The notes: generated by a model from the letters alone, not told the origin. A stretch of 64,000 nt of DNA from Escherichia coli (GCF_024700885.2 NZ_CP117016.1); one strand, 5' to 3'. Positions 40,268 to 51,624 are shown, counted from the stretch's first letter. Numbers and translations: made by a program.

Positions 40268-40708
40268 TTACTTAATAACAGTAACCACAGCCACAAGCAC
40301 GGCCATCGCAGACAGGACAATACCTGTGAGTAACCAAGTCTGATTTGCAAATGATTTCTGAAGTTCAGTACGATGCTCAGCCATCTCAACTTTCAGAGAC
40401 TGGCGTAAATCAGCCATCTCAGACTTCAGGGATTGGCGAGATTCTGCCATCTCAAGCCTCAACCCTTCGCGAATCTCCAGTACATCAGATTTGGTAGCAA
40501 AGGATTCGCTTCTTGTGGTGAGAGTAATCAGGTTGTTTTTGATTTCAGTCACATCACTTTCCAGGCAACTGACCCGCCGTTCAAGGTCGTCATTCATGCC
40601 ATCACCTCCATCATTACCACTTCCTGTTACTTGGTTGTTGGATACATTATAGGCATTCTCTTTCTTTTTTCTGAACCGCGAAATATGTGCAACATTCTCT
40701 GCCATCAC
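40268..40708 (-). CDS. hypothetical tail-anchored coiled-coil membrane protein (prophage cargo)
   Basis: 146 aa; three 11-residue repeats (EMAESRQSLKS / EMADLRQSLKV / EMAEHRTELQK) and a single C-terminal TM helix (WLLTGIVLSAMAVLVAVVTVIK); start overlaps the stop of the upstream gene (ATGA). No family recognised. Confidence 0.55.
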   Translation of the reverse strand: MMAENVAHISRFRKKKENAYNVSNNQVTGSGNDGGDGMNDDLERRVSCLESDVTEIKNNLITLTTRSESFATKSDVLEIREGLRLEMAESRQSLKSEMADLRQSLKVEMAEHRTELQKSFANQTWLLTGIVLSAMAVLVAVVTVIK

Positions 40709-41067
40709 TTCTCATCACCCTGCTTGCCTACCCAGTTCATAAAGGCCCGGGCCGAGTAACGATGAACAAACCCACATCTGTTACAGGTAAGTCGGAATTC
40801 ATAGTTATGGATATTTTCCCGATCATGTCCCTCATATCCCGGATACCCAGTAAATGGACCGATGTAATCAAGCATAACAAAAGTGCCTAAATCACACTCC
40901 TCAGCAGTTTTCGGCTCAGGCCCCACCTCAACAATATTCGTCAAATACATGTACATATCCGTATCGCCACACGACAAACATTTTTCATTCGTAGACGACT
41001 CATTGAGAAAACGCGCAAAATTATCGAGCGTTGCCATTCTTTTAAGCTCATCTAAATGAAACTTCAC
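40705..41067 (-). CDS. hypothetical Cys-motif protein (possible zinc ribbon), prophage cargo
   Basis: 120 aa with CLSC and CNRC pairs; begins 3 nt after the integrase stop. No family recognised. Confidence 0.55.
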   Translation of the reverse strand: MKFHLDELKRMATLDNFARFLNESSTNEKCLSCGDTDMYMYLTNIVEVGPEPKTAEECDLGTFVMLDYIGPFTGYPGYEGHDRENIHNYEFRLTCNRCGFVHRYSARAFMNWVGKQGDEK

Positions 41068-44790: not shown

Positions 44791-47627
44791 GTGAGTTTGC
44801 ATGGAGCTGGAATGAACCACGGCCAGCCATTGATCCGGCCAGATTTACGGAGCGCAGGCAGGAAACTGAAACCGACCTGCAACGCGCCATCCGTTACTAC
44901 CTTGAGGCAGACAAAAAGGCCCAAGAAGAACAGGAAGCGAAAGAGGAAGCCTTTTTCGCACAATCCGCCATGGGTAAAAAACTCATGGCATCCCTTGAGG
45001 AAGCCGGACAGCGTGAAAAGCTGGCACAAAGCATCATCAGTAAGCGCCGGGCAACAGAACAAGACCCGGTGGCCCGTGCCTTTGCCACACTGAAGGTGCT
45101 TCCCGTTTATCTGCGAGAACCCCTGAGCCGCCACCTCTCTTTCCTGCGCAAAAAACAGGAAGCCGATCGCCGGAAAGGCAAAAAGAGCTGGCAGGCGGAA
45201 CGCTATGCACGCGGAACCCTGCGCAAAATATTCGAACGTCTGGATCGCACTGACGGACGCTGGCTGACACAGGGTTATCGCTCCATTGCCGGACGCGAAC
45301 GCCTGGACGATTTGCTTTACCTGCCGCAGCTCAACAAACACCAGGTACAGACACTGGCCACCATGACGGCAGCAATGTTCAGTAGCACATTCGAAAAACT
45401 CTGCGATGGCTTTGGCGCGACCGATGGTGAGCTGACCATGGATGTAACGCTGAAGGCGTATCAGATGCTGGCCCGCATGGCGTTACATCTGCACGCCATG
45501 CCTCCACATTATGACGCACTGACAACAGATAGAGATCGGAGGAACGAACCGGACACAGAGCTGCTGCCAGGCGCAATCCTTCGCCTGACCTGTGCTGAAT
45601 GGTGGAAACGCAAACTGTGGCTATTACGTTGCGAGTGGAGAGAAGAACAACTCCGCGCCGCCTGTCTGGTTTCCAGAAAAACATCGCCCTATCTGAGCCA
45701 GGACGCGTTAAGCGAGTTTCGCGCACAGCGCGAGAAAACACGCGATTTCCTGAAAGGTTTCATGCTGGAAAACGAAGACGGGTTCACGATTGATCTCGAG
45801 ACAGTGTATTACGCGGGAGTAAGTAACCCGGTTCACCGTAAGGCAGAAATGATGGCCACCATGAAGGGGCTGGAACTTCTGGCCGAGGCCCGTGGTGACA
45901 AAGCGGTGTTTCTGACTGTCACCTGCCCGTCAAAATACCACGCCACAACAGAGAACGGTCATCCGAATCCCAAATGGAACGGGGCCACCATGCGCGACTC
46001 CAGCGATTACCTGGTTAACACGTTTTTTGCGGCGGTCCGCAAAAAACTGAACCGCGACGGTCTGCGCTGGTATGGCATCCGCACGGTGGAGCCTCACCAT
46101 GACGGCACCGTGCACTGGCATATGATGGTCTTTGCTCATCCGGAAGAAATCGACAGCATCGTGGCCATCACCCGCGATATTGCCATTCAGGAAGACCGCC
46201 ACGAGCTGGGCAATGATATTACTCCGCGCTTTAAGGTGGAGTATGTCGACGGCTCAAAAGGCACACCAACCAGCTATATCGCGACCTACATCGGAAAAAA
46301 CCTGGACAGCCGCGCCGTGGATGGCATCGACCCGAAAACGGGCAAACCACGCGTTGACCACGAAACAGGTAAATCAATGGCCGAGAGCGTGGAGCGCGCC
46401 ATCGGCTGGGCGCGCCTTCACCGGGTCCGCCAGTTCCAGTTCTTTGGCATCCCCTCCCGTCAGGTGTGGCGTGAACTGCGCCGCCTTGCCAGCCAGATGG
46501 CACGCAACCCGGAAGGCCCGCAACGGCTGAAGGATGACGCAATGGATGCGGTACTCGCTGCCGCTGATGCCGGGTGTTTTGCCTCCTACATTGAAAAACA
46601 GGGTGGCGTACTTGTTCCACGCAAGGACTACCTGATTCGCACCGCCTACGACCTCGCAGATGAGCTGAACGATTACGGCGAACAGAGCGTACAGATTTAC
46701 GGGATCTGGTCACCACTCATCGGGGAATCCTCCCGTGTGTGCACGCACCCGGATAACTGGAAGCTGGTAAGACGTAAACCGGAAGCGGAAGACAGCACCC
46801 GCGAAAATGATTTTGACCTTCAGGGCGGCCCTGCCGCCCCTTGGACTCGTGGCAATAACTGTCCCCGTGTACAGGAAACAGACAACAACGGGACAGAACA
46901 GCCGGAAGAACGGCCAGCACCGTGGCCGCAGCTCCCTGACGGCGTTGAAGTGAACGAATGGATGCATTCACTGAAACGGCACGAACGCCGGGCGCTGATG
47001 CGTTCGCTTCGTGACAAACAGGCAAAAAACAGCAGCGATGAAATGCAGAACTGGACACAGAGCCGCAAACAGCCACAGCCTTTACCTGATAACCACGAGT
47101 TACTCGCTAAAGAATGGCGGGAGTCTGCTGAATCTCTCGGCCTGCATATTGGTGAACAGCAGATGCAGCACCTGTTACGGGGCGGCAGTCTGTACGTTGA
47201 CGGCAGCATCATTGCACCGCAGGGATTTGAAATTGTACGCAAACCGGATACCCGCCCGGACAGCCGAATCACGCAGCTCTGGCAACGCCTGAGCCGTAAT
47301 CACGGCGTAAGCAGCACGGAGATCCGCCATAACCCGGTCGCCAGCTATCTGGAACAGCTGGGGGCATCAGACCCTGAAGCCGCCGCACGCCTGGCATCCA
47401 CACTTCAGCAAGACCAGAACACCATGAAAACCCCCGTTACCGTGCTTTCTGACATGCTGCGCGCCATCCGTGACGCAGAGCACGCACAGAGAATCAGTGA
47501 AACCACTGAACGCGCCCACCGCAAAGCAGACCTGCTGCGGGGTAGCCTGACCAGTGGAAACAAAAAACAGACAGAAACGGGACTCACAAATCCCGTAAAT
47601 GAGCAAAAAACGTGCCGCGATATATGA
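44787..47627 (+). CDS. P2 gpA-type rolling-circle replication initiator with long C-terminal extension
   Basis: 946 aa from MSEFAWSWNEP; HUH-type motif VHWHMMVFAH and downstream Tyr-containing region (YIATYIGKN) typical of P2/186 A proteins; last 200 aa or so is low-complexity. Confidence 0.8.
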   Translation: MSEFAWSWNEPRPAIDPARFTERRQETETDLQRAIRYYLEADKKAQEEQEAKEEAFFAQSAMGKKLMASLEEAGQREKLAQSIISKRRATEQDPVARAFATLKVLPVYLREPLSRHLSFLRKKQEADRRKGKKSWQAERYARGTLRKIFERLDRTDGRWLTQGYRSIAGRERLDDLLYLPQLNKHQVQTLATMTAAMFSSTFEKLCDGFGATDGELTMDVTLKAYQMLARMALHLHAMPPHYDALTTDRDRRNEPDTELLPGAILRLTCAEWWKRKLWLLRCEWREEQLRAACLVSRKTSPYLSQDALSEFRAQREKTRDFLKGFMLENEDGFTIDLETVYYAGVSNPVHRKAEMMATMKGLELLAEARGDKAVFLTVTCPSKYHATTENGHPNPKWNGATMRDSSDYLVNTFFAAVRKKLNRDGLRWYGIRTVEPHHDGTVHWHMMVFAHPEEIDSIVAITRDIAIQEDRHELGNDITPRFKVEYVDGSKGTPTSYIATYIGKNLDSRAVDGIDPKTGKPRVDHETGKSMAESVERAIGWARLHRVRQFQFFGIPSRQVWRELRRLASQMARNPEGPQRLKDDAMDAVLAAADAGCFASYIEKQGGVLVPRKDYLIRTAYDLADELNDYGEQSVQIYGIWSPLIGESSRVCTHPDNWKLVRRKPEAEDSTRENDFDLQGGPAAPWTRGNNCPRVQETDNNGTEQPEERPAPWPQLPDGVEVNEWMHSLKRHERRALMRSLRDKQAKNSSDEMQNWTQSRKQPQPLPDNHELLAKEWRESAESLGLHIGEQQMQHLLRGGSLYVDGSIIAPQGFEIVRKPDTRPDSRITQLWQRLSRNHGVSSTEIRHNPVASYLEQLGASDPEAAARLASTLQQDQNTMKTPVTVLSDMLRAIRDAEHAQRISETTERAHRKADLLRGSLTSGNKKQTETGLTNPVNEQKTCRDI

Positions 47628-47703
47628 AGCACGCACAAAACAGGCAAAAGAGGGATTTCAGAATCCCGTAAACGGTTAATTAATCAACATAAGGAAAATC
47701 GAC

Positions 47704-48663
47704 ATGAAAATTTGTATCGACGACGGCTCCACCAACATCAAGCTGGCATGGACTGAGAACGGCGAACGCCGCAACGCCATCAGCCCGAACAGCTTCAAGT
47801 CGGAATGGTCTGCGCCGTTCGGTGGCACGCAGCCCGCGAACTACATGCTTGATGGCGTGCGCTATGGTTTTGATCCGGTCAGCGATCGCTTTATCCAGAC
47901 GACCGACACACAATACCAGTACAGCGATGTGAATGTCATTGCCATTCATCACGCGCTGGTCAAATCAGGCATCACGCCACAGGAGGTGGATGTGGTTGTC
48001 ACCCTGCCACTGAGCGAGTATTTCGACACAAACGCACAGCCGGACATGGCCAACATCAACCGCAAAAAAGCAAACGTTATGCGCCCGGTGGAATACCAGA
48101 ACGGCGAAGCATTCACTATCCGTAATGTACGGGTTATGCCTGAATCCATTCCGGCTGGCTTTAAAGCACTGGCTGACATGAGTCCGTTTGAATCCCTGCT
48201 GATTGTGGATTTAGGTGGAACCACGCTGGATGTGGCAAAGGTTCAGGGACAACTGGCAGGTATCAGCCAGGTGTTTTGCGATCCACACGTAGGCGTTTCC
48301 CTGATGGCCGATGCAGTACTGTCGGTGATGGCCACTAACGGTATGCGTACCAGTCACCACATCGCCAATACCATTATCGAACATCGCCATGATGAAGCCT
48401 GGCTGCGCCAGCACATCCACAATGACGCGCATTACGCCAGCCTGATGGCGGTTATTCGTGAAAAGGAAGAAACACTGAAACAACGCGTGATCCGCGCGCT
48501 GGCGGGTTTTTCGGGTTACGGGCGGGTGATGGTTGTCGGTGGCGGGGCGGAGATTGTGGCACCCGCTATCCGCGAAGCCTGCGGAGTTAATGCGACTTTC
48601 ATCGCGGACGGGGTGCCACAGTTTGCTCTGGTTAATGGGCTGTACGCAATGGACAAGGAGTAA
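47704..48663 (+). CDS. ParM/StbA-like actin-type ATPase
   Basis: 319 aa; actin-fold motifs IDDGSTNIKL (phosphate 1), DLGGTTLDV (phosphate 2), VVGGGAE (adenosine); collinear over full length with recalled plasmid R1 ParM (MLVFIDDGSTNIKLQW…YSDVNVVAVHHALL…VMPESIPAGY…DLGGTTLD…GGGAEL). Confidence 0.8.
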   Translation: MKICIDDGSTNIKLAWTENGERRNAISPNSFKSEWSAPFGGTQPANYMLDGVRYGFDPVSDRFIQTTDTQYQYSDVNVIAIHHALVKSGITPQEVDVVVTLPLSEYFDTNAQPDMANINRKKANVMRPVEYQNGEAFTIRNVRVMPESIPAGFKALADMSPFESLLIVDLGGTTLDVAKVQGQLAGISQVFCDPHVGVSLMADAVLSVMATNGMRTSHHIANTIIEHRHDEAWLRQHIHNDAHYASLMAVIREKEETLKQRVIRALAGFSGYGRVMVVGGGAEIVAPAIREACGVNATFIADGVPQFALVNGLYAMDKE

Positions 48664-48667
48664 ACCA

Positions 48668-48979
48668 ATGACGACACCAACCAGGCGGATAAGTTTCTAT
48701 CTGAAGCCTGCGGCCGTCAAGAACGAAAGCGAAGCATGCGCCTGGCTGGACAGCCTTACACCGGAAGCCCGCAAAAGCGGCCAACGCGTGGCTTTTCTGG
48801 CCGGGCTGGCACTTCTGAAAATGAATCCGGCAGAGGCTTACCGACTGGCTGCATGGGCTGACGATGAGGCGTTATCAGTGACACAAACCAGGACAGAACG
48901 CCCCCTGTCACAGCCAGTACCAACCGCACAGATAACCAGTCAGATGGCCGGAAATATCAGGGCGTTATTTCCTGAATAA
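48668..48979 (+). CDS. ParR-like DNA-binding adaptor
   Basis: 103 aa from MTTPTRRISFYLKPAA...; N-terminus resembles recalled R1 ParR (RRTIAFKLNPDV…LDSIP.GERS…AALTAGLALY); starts 5 nt after the parM-like stop. Confidence 0.65.
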   Translation: MTTPTRRISFYLKPAAVKNESEACAWLDSLTPEARKSGQRVAFLAGLALLKMNPAEAYRLAAWADDEALSVTQTRTERPLSQPVPTAQITSQMAGNIRALFPE

Positions 48980-48986
48980 CACAACG

Positions 48987-49006
48987 TCAGGGCGAGTTCG
49001 CCCTGA
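48987..49006 (+). terminator. hairpin TCAGGGCGA-GT-TCGCCCTGA after the parR-like gene
   Basis: Perfect 9-bp inverted repeat; no strong T-run, so terminator function is tentative. Confidence 0.35.
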
Positions 49007-49042
49007 TCTCCATCTCAGAACATAAACAAGAAGAGCGACTTA

Positions 49043-49426
49043 ATGAGCAAAATCAACTATCAGGCATTACGTGAACGTTATTCACCTGCACCAGTACCAA
49101 AATGCCCTATTTGCTGCGAAGAAATGTCAATTCAGCGAATATCTGGAGCACAGGTTGTTTATGGCTGCTCCGGTTATGGTGATGATGGAGATTTCAAAAT
49201 TGGTCGAACTCTTGCCGACGAACATTATGAAAAATCACGCGTAACAGTGTTGGATGTCGGGGATCCTGAAGTATTGGCGCTACTTGATTGGCTGGAAACC
49301 AAAGACAACCGAATCGCTGAACTGGAAAAAATCGCCACTGACTATGCACTTAAATTCCAGAAAGCACAGGACGCATTAAAGTACGCCGCTTTGCTGCATA
49401 GCAGGTCAGCGCAGCTACAAGACTAA
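49043..49426 (+). CDS. hypothetical protein with N-terminal Cys motif (CPICC...GCSGYG) and C-terminal coiled coil
   Basis: 127-aa ORF; lower GC than the phage backbone by eye; no family recognised. Confidence 0.5.
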   Translation: MSKINYQALRERYSPAPVPKCPICCEEMSIQRISGAQVVYGCSGYGDDGDFKIGRTLADEHYEKSRVTVLDVGDPEVLALLDWLETKDNRIAELEKIATDYALKFQKAQDALKYAALLHSRSAQLQD

Positions 49427-49454
49427 CTTAAAGCGGAAGATTAATACATGGTGA

Positions 49455-49481
49455 GTCGGGGTAATTTGTTTTTATCCCGAC
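49455..49481. terminator. bidirectional terminator hairpin between convergent island genes
   Basis: GTCGGG...CCCGAC stem with a T-rich loop and flank, between the plus-strand 127-aa gene and the minus-strand membrane gene. Confidence 0.45.
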
Positions 49482-49516
49482 AAATAAACAAAAAAGTGGA
49501 CTATCTCTGTAGTATC

Positions 49517-50047
49517 TTATTCAGCATCGTCTCGTGCAGTCTGTGCATACGTCACAACAACGCCCAATGCATTAGTTTTCTTTTCAACATAGATAATATT
49601 GTCATATTCATAGTTACCATACGGATAGCAAATAAGAATATTTTTATGCAGATCGGGATCATCAACAAACGCTCCGGAACAGCTTCTTGAACTACCGGAT
49701 GTATACTCATACGGTGCAACATATGATGATGTTACTCCTGGTAAAAAATAAGTCACCATCATAAGAGGGATAATCAGGAATATCCCTGTAAGAATGCAAG
49801 AGCCAGCATAAACCTTCAGGTATTCCGACAGTCCTTTCCAGCCACTTTGCTTCACTACCCCCCTCTTCACCAGAAACAAGGAGAAGAAAAAGGACATACC
49901 CATACTACATAAGATGTAATAATTGGATATACGCGAATTAAGATATGTAATCCTGTAGATATCTGCCCTCCACCAGTAAAAGAGGAAAATAATCCCTAGC
50001 ACTGAAACAGTCATGCAAATCAAATAAGGATATGAATCTTTCTTCAT
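49517..50047 (-). CDS. hypothetical low-GC integral membrane protein (moron-like)
   Basis: 176 aa; three predicted TM segments (YLICMTVSVLGIIFLFYWW, YYILCSMGMSFFFSLFLV, CILTGIFLIIPLMMVTYFL) then a roughly 70-aa soluble C-terminal domain; markedly AT-rich compared with flanking phage DNA (by eye). Confidence 0.6.
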   Translation of the reverse strand: MKKDSYPYLICMTVSVLGIIFLFYWWRADIYRITYLNSRISNYYILCSMGMSFFFSLFLVKRGVVKQSGWKGLSEYLKVYAGSCILTGIFLIIPLMMVTYFLPGVTSSYVAPYEYTSGSSRSCSGAFVDDPDLHKNILICYPYGNYEYDNIIYVEKKTNALGVVVTYAQTARDDAE

Positions 50048-50095
50048 GTCTTGCGCTCATTAAAATTTCCCTGCTACGAACAAATTTACCATCCG

Positions 50096-50250
50096 TTTTT
50101 TGCGCAGAAAACAGCACGATGCACACTGCACGATAGTGCACAAATTTGCACAATTTTTTTGAACGACTTTTTACCCTTCCGGCCCGCATGGCGGCTGGAT
50201 CCGTCAAGGATCCGTGCGTGCACAAAAAAACGCGTTTTTTCTGCGCGCAG
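50096..50250. repeat. structured non-coding region: inverted repeats GCGCAGAAAA/TTTTCTGCGC, TGCACA iterons, GGATCCGT x2 at 11-bp spacing
   Basis: Seen directly; lies where the cos/packaging site of P2-like phages maps (between the accessory island and the portal gene). Confidence 0.5.
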
Positions 50251-50526
50251 GTGACGGGGGAACAGCCCGCGTTTCAGGGGGTAAATAGTATTCCCTGAGC
50301 GATGTCGCAGCGACATAACAGAATGGCCATATTTCTCACGCTGAGCGTGAAAAAGATGTGAGGGCTTTTGATTTGATGGGGTGAAAGGTAAGGCCGTCAA
50401 AATCGAACTGAGGCGGTGAGAACATGCAGTCAGCGCGGTGGGATTGCGTAAGAGTCTGACCGTCGATGATGGTAATAAACAGGAAAGCGTCGTGAAATTA
50501 TCTGATTGATACAGGAGCTGGAGAGT

Positions 50527-50551
50527 CGGGGCATAAATTTTTTATGCCCCG
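50527..50551. terminator. strong hairpin CGGGGCATAAA-TTT-TTTATGCCCCG downstream of the portal gene
   Basis: Perfect 11-bp inverted repeat immediately past the minus-strand Q stop; probable terminator of the Q-P transcript. Confidence 0.55.
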
Positions 50552-50577
50552 GCGAAGCAGCGGACAAGCGAAGCGCG

Positions 50578-51624
50578 TCAGGATGTGGGCTGGGTGTCTA
50601 ACAGTGCGTAAGGGTTAAAGCGAATCACCTCTTCGCCAAGCCAGTCATTGATGTGCTTCATGGCCTCCATGACGGGCATCAGCTCGTTAATTGCGTAAAC
50701 CCGCGCGGCCTTCTCCACATCACCAAACGCACTTTTTTCGCCTGGCATCGCCCCCATCAGTTGCGGCGGAACGCGGTGCGCAGCCAGCACATCATCACGG
50801 GATGCCACCTTAACATTCATGAACTCATCCTTTGCGGTGATCTGCTGGAACGGCAAAATTTGCACCCCCTCTTTGCCACCGTTGGGCGCATGAATGAGCA
50901 CGTTTTTAAACGCACCACCACCACGTGCACCCTGTAGCGTTTCTTTCAGGGAGTCCATGCTTTCGCGGTTTACCTGCGCTGCACCGATGTAGATGATGCA
51001 CCCGGCGTGGGATCCGTTGTCGTAATACAGTTTTCTGAACATGTCCGCCGAATGAGACAGGCTGGCCGAGAGTAATGCGCCGAGATATTCCGGCATGCCG
51101 TAGATTTCCTGGTTAATGTCAGGATTCATCAGGTGGCACACTTTGCCAGGGCGAAACTGAAACGCGTCCTTGCCATCCTGCACATACCACCATGATTCAA
51201 GATCGCTTCCGCGTCGCATGTATTTCGCCAGGGCGTGCCGTAATTTAAGCGGTTCGCCGAGCATATTGCTTCGAAGCTCAAGGAATGCGTTACCGAACAC
51301 AAACCAGTCCAGCGCCAGCGCCGAGAAATCCTGCCGGGAAAGCAACGGGTGCGGGATGTAGCAACCGAGTAATACATTGCGCTTAAAGTAAAGCGCAGAC
51401 TGATGCCAGGACGTTTGCCGGGCAGCTCTTGCCAGACCGTACCAGTCCACCGGGGTTTCATACCACCGCCCGTTATCAGCACAGTACATATTGTCCAGCA
51501 GGTCATGCCCGGTCAGGCGATAAGGACCATCAAATGTGAATGCACTGAGCGATGATTCTTTCCTGAGCGCATCAGCGAGATCAATGCGTGAACTCATGCG
51601 CACTTTTTTATTTTTTCTACTCAT
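50578..51624 (-). CDS. portal protein (P2 gpQ-like)
   Basis: 348 aa; position and orientation as P2 Q; stop overlaps the terminase start. Confidence 0.8.
   Translation of the reverse strand: MSRKNKKVRMSSRIDLADALRKESSLSAFTFDGPYRLTGHDLLDNMYCADNGRWYETPVDWYGLARAARQTSWHQSALYFKRNVLLGCYIPHPLLSRQDFSALALDWFVFGNAFLELRSNMLGEPLKLRHALAKYMRRGSDLESWWYVQDGKDAFQFRPGKVCHLMNPDINQEIYGMPEYLGALLSASLSHSADMFRKLYYDNGSHAGCIIYIGAAQVNRESMDSLKETLQGARGGGAFKNVLIHAPNGGKEGVQILPFQQITAKDEFMNVKVASRDDVLAAHRVPPQLMGAMPGEKSAFGDVEKAARVYAINELMPVMEAMKHINDWLGEEVIRFNPYALLDTQPTS

Follow-up and report, generated by a model that had tools for sequence, protein, structure and literature searches.

ParMR-type partition genes, a truncated Ead/Ea22-like gene and a candidate exclusion gene between the replication and portal genes of a P2-family prophage of Escherichia coli

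The DNA analyzed here is a 2950-bp (base pair) stretch, positions 47628-50577 of a 64,000-nucleotide (nt) window of the Escherichia coli genome NZ_CP117016.1 (GCF_024700885.2); all positions below are counted from the first letter of that window. The stretch lies between the P2-type replication endonuclease gene A and the portal gene of a P88-like prophage (Xuanwuvirus, Peduoviridae), integrated beside btuC and seemingly whole. It is found with 100% identity over its whole length in E. coli E-1246 (NZ_CP025573), where it sits in a complete P2-family prophage next to btuC with genes from integrase to tail annotated, and its left 61% is 96-97% identical to phage P88 as well as to PhiR44_2, Shae_phiSM, 520873, Chuche and P884B11.

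Gene content of the region between A and the portal gene

Four genes are placed between A and the portal gene by the open reading frame (ORF) listing: the actin-like segregation gene parM, its adaptor gene parR, an ORF of 127 amino acids (aa), and a convergent ORF of 176 aa (Table 1). Roughly 530 bp of non-coding DNA separate the last of these from the portal gene, and the GC content drops to 0.38-0.42 over 49400-50200, compared with 0.51-0.58 on either side. The original prediction, made from the sequence without database searches, had described a ParM/ParR-like pair, a Cys-motif/coiled-coil protein and a convergent AT-rich protein with three transmembrane helices, separated by hairpins, in an accessory slot that holds neither of the P2 genes tin and old. 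As to gene content, this description was borne out. The ORF listing gives the same coordinates, the first two proteins match the Pfam families of ParM and ParR, the 127-aa protein has a CxxC...C N-terminus followed by a coiled coil and carries the Ead_Ea22 signature, and an AlphaFold2 (AF2) model of the 176-aa protein contains three long helices. No homologue of tin or old and no defence-system match was found among the four proteins with PADLOC at E<=1, and profile searches, which had been proposed as a check, assigned three of them to Pfam families (ParM, ParR and Ead_Ea22) and the membrane protein to none.

Table 1 Features of the region and its borders (window coordinates)
Feature	Position	Strand	Details
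Replication endonuclease A, P2-type, 955 aa	44760-47627		ORF listing
Candidate parC centromere/operator	47561-47672	+	Two 39-nt direct repeats
parM, actin-like segregation ATPase, 319 aa	47704-48663	+	Pfam StbA_N 3e-82; ParM C-terminal domain 2e-68
parR, stbB-type adaptor, 103 aa	48668-48979	+	Pfam Plasmid_stab_B 2e-24, residues 6-76
Hairpin, GC-rich, between parR and Ead-like gene	48986-49006	+	-16.4 kcal/mol, z -4.4; no shuffle as stable
Ead/Ea22-like gene, truncated, 127 aa	49043-49426	+	Pfam Ead_Ea22 (PF13935) 1e-27, residues 2-117
Moron cassette, AT-rich, 712 bp	49414-50125		Breakpoints by blastn against sibling prophage L006
Hairpin between the convergent Ead-like and membrane genes	49455-49481	+	-15.4 kcal/mol, z -3.0
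Membrane-protein gene, 176 aa	49517-50047	-	Three predicted transmembrane helices and a beta-rich C-terminal domain (~75 aa)
Extended -10-like promoter motif TGGTAAATT	50083-50091	-	36 nt upstream of the membrane-gene ATG
Conserved cos-proximal non-coding region, phage backbone, 452 bp	50126-50577		96% identity to cassette-free sibling L006
Hairpin, perfect 11-bp, just downstream of portal gene	50527-50551		-22.4 kcal/mol, z -5.0
Portal gene	50578-51624	-	ORF listing

The three hairpins of Table 1 are all predicted to fold stably. The hairpin after parR is not followed by a T-run on the plus strand and is therefore not a canonical terminator, and the stem between the two convergent genes also appears in the minus-strand fold of 49440-49520 (-14.9 kcal/mol for the entire segment, z -2.3). 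No Rfam family was found in 47300-50800, the cos-proximal region included. Without a parR match, this cos-proximal region alone occurs at ~95% identity in many E. coli genomes.

ParMR in the lineage core

By its sequence, the pair is a genuine R1-type ParMR (type II partition) system. The phage ParM aligns end to end with the crystallized R1 ParM (1mwk; E 1e-92, 46% identity), and ParR, the gene of which follows the parM stop after a 4-bp gap, matches phrog_2515, annotated as 'partition protein', with an E-value of 4e-58. The locus is like ParMRC of R1 (stbA/stbB of NR1) in its full-length ParM match, its Plasmid_stab_B-type ParR, the gene order parM-parR and the presence of upstream repeats. 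Unlike the R1 system, the phage pair is carried by an integrating P2-family phage and is almost always chromosomal; its centromere candidate consists of two long repeats overlapping the end of A, whereas R1 has about ten short iterons; and genuine plasmids in PLSDB gave no tblastn match to its ParR type.

Contrary to the original prediction, 47628-50577 is not variable as a whole. The end of A, the 76-bp gap after it and parM are present in all of the 80 IMG/VR loci, which were recovered using ParM, at 96-99% nt identity, and P88, PhiR44_2, Shae_phiSM, 520873 and Chuche share the end of A together with parM and parR at 95-99% conservation; at the other border, the last 452 bp form the conserved cos-proximal region. 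parM is intact in 79 of the 80 IMG/VR copies, and its ratio of nonsynonymous to synonymous polymorphism (pN/pS) is 0.044 over 67 alleles, indicating strong purifying selection. Among 5,426 complete E. coli genomes, 1,302 harbor parM, and about 95% of the ParMR carriers have neither the Ead-like nor the membrane gene. parMR is a part of the lineage core and not variable cargo. No discussion of these genes is given in the paper on P88.

The proposal that an undescribed maintenance system might lie here does not hold for parMR, as the pair is of a known kind and its presence at this site is published. A partition system was reported at this hotspot in about a quarter of P2-like phages, and a role in plasmid maintenance was suggested for it (Rousset et al. 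2022, PMC9122126), by which ParMR would enable the phage to persist as a plasmid prophage of low copy number. This published idea is in line with the bona fide R1-type nature of both proteins and with a 34,461-bp circular PLSDB record (NZ_CP148288.1) that consists of a whole P88-like phage and makes an episomal form possible. That single record could, however, be an induced replicative form, and 1,440 of the 1,442 places of parM in the complete E. coli genomes are chromosomal, with only 2 on plasmids, so the distribution is not that of a plasmid or extrachromosomal resident. The phages have also retained their integrase, and P2-type replication needs a nickase, A, that lysogens keep repressed. 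A plasmid-prophage lifestyle is therefore considered quite unlikely.

With ParR as the query, tblastn against 72,556 PLSDB plasmids returned no match beyond seven records with the same ParMR locus, none of them on a genuine plasmid. Relatives of ParM with 65-69% nt identity are present on more than 1,600 plasmids, including the IncL/M plasmid pOXA-48; no similarity was found between the phage ParR and the ParR of pOXA-48, and a PDB sequence search with the phage ParR returned nothing.

Upstream of parM, a candidate centromere is formed by two 39-nt direct repeats (47561-47599 and 47634-47672) with a spacing of 73 bp, each of which ends in GGGAYT-N4-AATCCCGTAAA. The first repeat lies within the 3' end of A and the second within the 76-bp gap between A and parM. 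A 21-nt motif of the repeats occurs twice in the 64 kb, against 0.11 occurrences expected, and the candidate parC region is ~90% conserved over 61 distinct upstream sequences. In the parMR locus of pOXA-48, the iteron clusters around the promoter are also 73 bp apart. We regard the repeats as a putative centromere, with two copies only, one of them in coding sequence. P2 gpA has ~760 aa, and the 955-aa A protein of this prophage has an extra C-terminal part that matches phrog_6857 and is encoded up to final codons that overlap the first repeat.

parR itself occurs in more than one form. At least two further alleles, with only 75-78% nt identity, were observed beside parM genes that are 97-99% identical. 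These divergent parR genes were located in 19 loci, ~960-1280 nt after the parM start. The N-terminal strand of ParR (MTTPTRRISFYLKP) and its C-terminal NIxAxFPE tail are kept between the divergent alleles, the tail ending in FPE or FPK. As the N-terminal strand, which reads the DNA, is the same in every allele, a comparison of ParR alleles with their upstream repeats for covariation was uninformative. Six of these loci have a different head module in place of the usual cos region and portal gene, encoding a terminase-like protein of 506 aa and a portal-like one of 344 aa, with two small genes between the module and parR, which points to mosaicism at the junction of ParMR and the head genes.

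The variable slot, the AT-rich cassette and the membrane protein

Variation begins only after parR. More than 20 gene arrangements follow parR in the 80 loci, and between 535 bp and over 4 kb separate it from the conserved cos-proximal segment. In sibling prophages, the cargo of this slot includes a full-length 196-aa Ead/Ea22 protein and a zinc-finger protein of ClpX type accompanied by small partners. Four loci have an AbiLi/AbiLii-like pair (PADLOC 1e-27), composed of a 399-aa AbiLi-like ATPase and a 172-aa AbiLii/Toprim-like partner, and in three others a 360-aa IetA homologue (4e-89) lies downstream of parR. Doc/Phd, DUF3800 and DUF4760 proteins are further cargo in complete genomes and phage records. 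The interval between gpA and gpQ is a documented defence hotspot of P2-like phages (Rousset et al. 2022, PMC9122126), and this literature, together with the AbiL-like and IetA genes of the siblings, agrees with the predicted accessory position. The slot is like the P2 tin/old hotspot in occupying the same interval between the replication endonuclease and portal genes, beside cos, and unlike the survey's description of it in that ParMR here belongs to the backbone and the variable part starts after parR.

The extent of the variable DNA is defined by comparison with L006 (NZ_CP196259), a cassette-free sibling prophage with the order A-ParM-ParR-Ead (196 aa)-cos-portal. By blastn, 48980-49413 corresponds to L006 1813-2246 and 50126-50577 to L006 2505-2956, collinearly and at 96% identity in both cases. 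Between these segments, a 712-bp cassette stands in for 258 bp of the cassette-free backbone, including the C-terminal domain of Ead. Of the variable island originally proposed, these 712 bp are the only part that is specific to this arrangement relative to its closest cassette-free relative. As phages with 96% identity on both of its flanks either have or lack it, and as its GC content deviates, the cassette is classed as a moron.

The Ead-like ORF stops 13 nt past the cassette breakpoint and lacks ~70 C-terminal residues compared with L006. As judged from this alignment, the gene is reduced to its N-terminus and coiled coil by the cassette replacement, and RefSeq labels it 'incomplete, missing C-terminus'. 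The protein is like the Ea22/Ead family of the lambda exo-xis region in its N-terminal segment and coiled coil with the Ead_Ea22 signature, and unlike it in having no C-terminal domain and in belonging to a P2-family rather than a lambdoid phage. A PDB sequence search with it returned nothing. Ea22 proteins are mosaic in that they share the N-terminus and the coiled coil but can exchange the domain at the C-terminus (PMC10834534), and lambda Ea22 favours lysogeny (PMC7093339, PMC10834534).

Cassette copies with at least 99% identity were found in 76 E. coli genomes, 61 of which have the whole island. At 78% nt identity, the cassette also matches phage 434 and a prophage remnant adjacent to torI (over 49453-50161 or 49513-50161), the latter in 83 E. 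coli genomes. In phage 434 the matching segment is part of the int-xis-exo region, where the membrane gene runs in the opposite direction to int, xis and exo. In porcine enterotoxigenic E. coli (ETEC; NZ_CP122938.1, ETEC4070, ETEC4079 and ETEC6334), a deletion interrupts the cassette after 283 bp and fuses it to tail-fibre genes, and those prophages are remnants; the truncated ETEC copies listed here also adjoin an Ead-like gene. A conserved pairing of the Ead-like and membrane genes was considered and rejected, as the Ead-like protein and the zinc-finger neighbour in phage 434 are not homologous. At the right cassette junction, GTGCA is repeated five times at 7-10-bp intervals on the minus strand (50110-50160; TTGTGCAAATTTGTGCACTATCGTGCAGTGTGCATCGTGC), and ~35 bp of this array are common to the P88-like backbone and phage 434; the array may be a recombination joint or an array of binding sites.

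The cassette encodes a single membrane protein. In the AF2 model (pLDDT 75), helices at residues 5-30, 38-61 and 73-101 are followed by five strands, and C123, C140 and G162 are invariant among 28 homologues. From the K/R-rich loop at residues 61-79, the acidic C-terminal domain and the Cys pair, we infer that the protein has its N-terminus inside and its C-terminus outside, the beta domain being periplasmic and held by a disulfide bond. Upstream of the gene, the motif TG-N-TAA(A/T/G)TT is kept in five aligned copies from E. coli, phage 434, Salmonella and Enterobacter, and is read as an extended -10 element by its match to the consensus; downstream of the gene lies the hairpin at 49455-49481, a possible terminator. 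The ratio of nonsynonymous to synonymous substitution (dN/dS) of the gene is 0.10-0.14, indicating purifying selection.

In RefSeq, the Ead-like gene and the membrane gene both carry pseudogene flags, that of the latter being 'frameshifted', a call that stretches the membrane ORF to 50092. The upstream "ATG GTA AAT TTG" that serves as the start for RefSeq and for the annotators of phage 434 coincides with the TGnTAAAT motif, and the start Met of the 176-aa ORF is conserved in divergent homologues with good Shine-Dalgarno sequences. Because the gene is intact, with a dN/dS of ~0.1, the 'frameshifted' flag looks wrong. If the right part of the region were a recombination leftover with two decaying pseudogenes, the RefSeq flags, the lost C-terminal domain of Ead and the ETEC cassettes cut by a larger deletion would be accounted for. 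For the membrane gene, however, this explanation is opposed by an ORF that is full length against homologues sharing its start Met, by the low dN/dS with the invariant residues kept, and by the position of the 'ATG' behind the frameshift call on a conserved promoter-like motif. Decay is plausible for the Ead fragment, and very unlikely as an account of both genes. Since RefSeq gives no protein record for the membrane gene, protein-based hotspot surveys would probably miss it and are unlikely to have listed this cargo.

The membrane protein belongs to a family of 55 clusters among 1.84 billion representatives, all of ~170 aa and without a name. Nothing significant was found for it in Pfam or NCBIfam, and neither it nor any of the 28 aligned members matched a Pfam family, S_2TMBeta included, at E<=0.001. 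Searches of the PDB with the single sequence and a 28-member profile returned nothing, BFVD gave no meaningful match, the PHROG match is a family of unknown function, and Foldseek against AFDB50 returned uncharacterized relatives and a weak match to an S-2TMbeta effector only. No mention of WP_000711110 was found in the set of papers searched. In P2-like prophages of Salmonella and Enterobacter that have no ParMR, homologues with 66%, 56% and 57% identity sit in the slot between gpA and the portal gene and point the same way with respect to the latter, and homologues without ParMR are also found in phages 434, mEp332 and 2B8 and in the torI-adjacent remnant. A 43%-identical homologue adjoins large DUF4062/AAA/TPR genes, which we take to be STAND/NLR-like defence genes.

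P22 SieA, HK97 gp15 and T4 Imm are single-gene membrane proteins of superinfection exclusion. The cassette protein resembles them as a small inner-membrane protein encoded by an accessory gene of temperate phages that is present or absent in near-identical phages, and differs in that no sequence or fold similarity to them was found. Considering the protein architecture and the company of the slot, we tentatively favour a lysogen-expressed protein of superinfection exclusion, or another anti-phage membrane protein, although the chance of this falls short of even. The protein could alternatively be a lysogenic-conversion factor outside defence, involved in envelope or stress functions or in immunity to a pore-forming bacteriocin or contact-dependent toxin. 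Immunity proteins of pore-forming colicins are inner-membrane proteins of similar size with three to four transmembrane helices, and a small inner-membrane protein that has a promoter-like motif, lies in a prophage accessory slot and matches no defence family would suit such a factor. Its recurrence specifically in phage hotspots enriched for anti-phage genes, the distant homologue beside DUF4062/AAA/TPR genes, and the lack of an adjacent toxin or bacteriocin gene in any context examined argue against a conversion factor, which appears rather unlikely.

Three modules and their possible functions

We read the region as the cos-proximal accessory end of the prophage, made up of three independent modules, namely parMR, a truncated Ead/Ea22 gene and a membrane-gene moron, and give this reading as a whole a probability of about 0.7. 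ParMR stands alone in ~95% of its carriers, and several lineages have the membrane gene but no ParMR. The boundaries of the modules, their conservation and the selection on them are established by the comparisons described above. The original prediction of an undescribed defence, exclusion or maintenance system is upheld to the extent that the membrane gene stays a candidate, and not for the four genes as one system. In such a system, ParM and ParR would sense or serve as a scaffold, and the membrane protein would be the effector; the genes are indeed adjacent within a known defence hotspot, and other defence systems made of cytoskeletal proteins or of an ATPase plus an effector exist. The genes co-occur poorly, however, the membrane gene came in a separate 712-bp cassette of different GC content on the opposite strand, and none of the four proteins has a PADLOC match. 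A single four-gene system is extremely unlikely and already largely refuted by the gene distribution.

Several observations weigh against the functions favoured here. For the partition genes, the candidate parC has two repeats, whereas R1 has roughly ten iterons; the first repeat lies in coding sequence, and its conservation may therefore reflect gene A. A consensus scan upstream of parM, including the 76-bp gap, found no plus-strand sigma-70 promoter, a result that would fit transcription reaching parMR from the early operon by read-through. For the membrane gene, the same holds for the minus strand upstream, where the sigma-70 scan, which requires a -35 element, found no promoter, and the RefSeq pseudogene calls count here as well. 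PADLOC-DB v2 gave no match for the membrane protein or for ten distant family members, and the sole annotated structural neighbour is an S-2TMbeta effector (Foldseek E 8e-8, TM-score 0.57, 17% identity). Moreover, membrane proteins of prophage accessory slots can also serve in envelope modification or bacteriocin immunity.

The SMODS-associating 2TM beta-strand-rich (S-2TMbeta) effector domain of CBASS is like the cassette protein in having N-terminal transmembrane helices followed by a beta-rich domain, and appears at Foldseek rank 45. The cassette protein has three helices instead of two, its sequence identity to the domain is low, the S_2TMBeta profile does not match, and no cyclase or other CBASS gene was found near the membrane gene in the ORF listing or the RefSeq annotation. 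Membership in this family was therefore rejected.

For the activities of the modules, we infer the following scheme. By analogy with R1 ParMRC, ParR would bind the two 39-nt repeats, and ParM filaments would push the ParR-bound phage circles apart. ParMR would act on the phage genome while it is transiently circular, whether prior to integration, following excision or in the course of replication, and not in the upkeep of a plasmid prophage; this is suggested by the strong selection on parM, the near absence of plasmid copies, and the position of parMR after A without a detected promoter. In the right part of the region, the 712-bp moron replaced 258 bp of backbone, truncated Ead, and brought in a promoter-like motif and one opposite-strand gene, and the membrane protein would be made from the prophage as a moron product. 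In a bolder reading, ParMR would be a temperate-coliphage cytoskeleton, able to separate or position the monomeric circles that arise from P2-type rolling-circle replication or to ensure that the unintegrated or excised genome is inherited, and, independently of this, the protein with three transmembrane helices and a beta domain would represent a new exclusion family. This combined proposal is possible but doubtful.

Outside the region, the gap between btuC and the integrase gene contains two co-oriented genes on the minus strand (40268-41067), encoding function-unassigned proteins of 145 and 120 aa (phrog_9415 and phrog_4293). The segment has a GC content of 0.42-0.46, and its position is that of the minor int-att accessory site of P2-like phages. 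For the two proteins, PADLOC returned nothing past a marginal LmuB match (E 0.0075).

In summary, descriptions already exist of the hotspot, of ParMR as its occupant and of the Ead/Ea22 family, and most of the predicted island is lineage backbone known from the literature. What a textbook plasmid-partition machine, kept at a pN/pS of 0.04, is doing in the integrated prophages of about a quarter of E. coli genomes is nevertheless a real question, as the published guess of plasmid maintenance fits the counts on chromosomes and plasmids poorly, and knowing what ParMR segregates would expose an unstudied step in the life cycle of the P2 family. The membrane cassette, the gene of which is hidden as a pseudogene by the current RefSeq annotation, is compact and easy to clone, and is a candidate for a new determinant of exclusion or defence that consists of one gene and is shared by P2-like and lambdoid phages.

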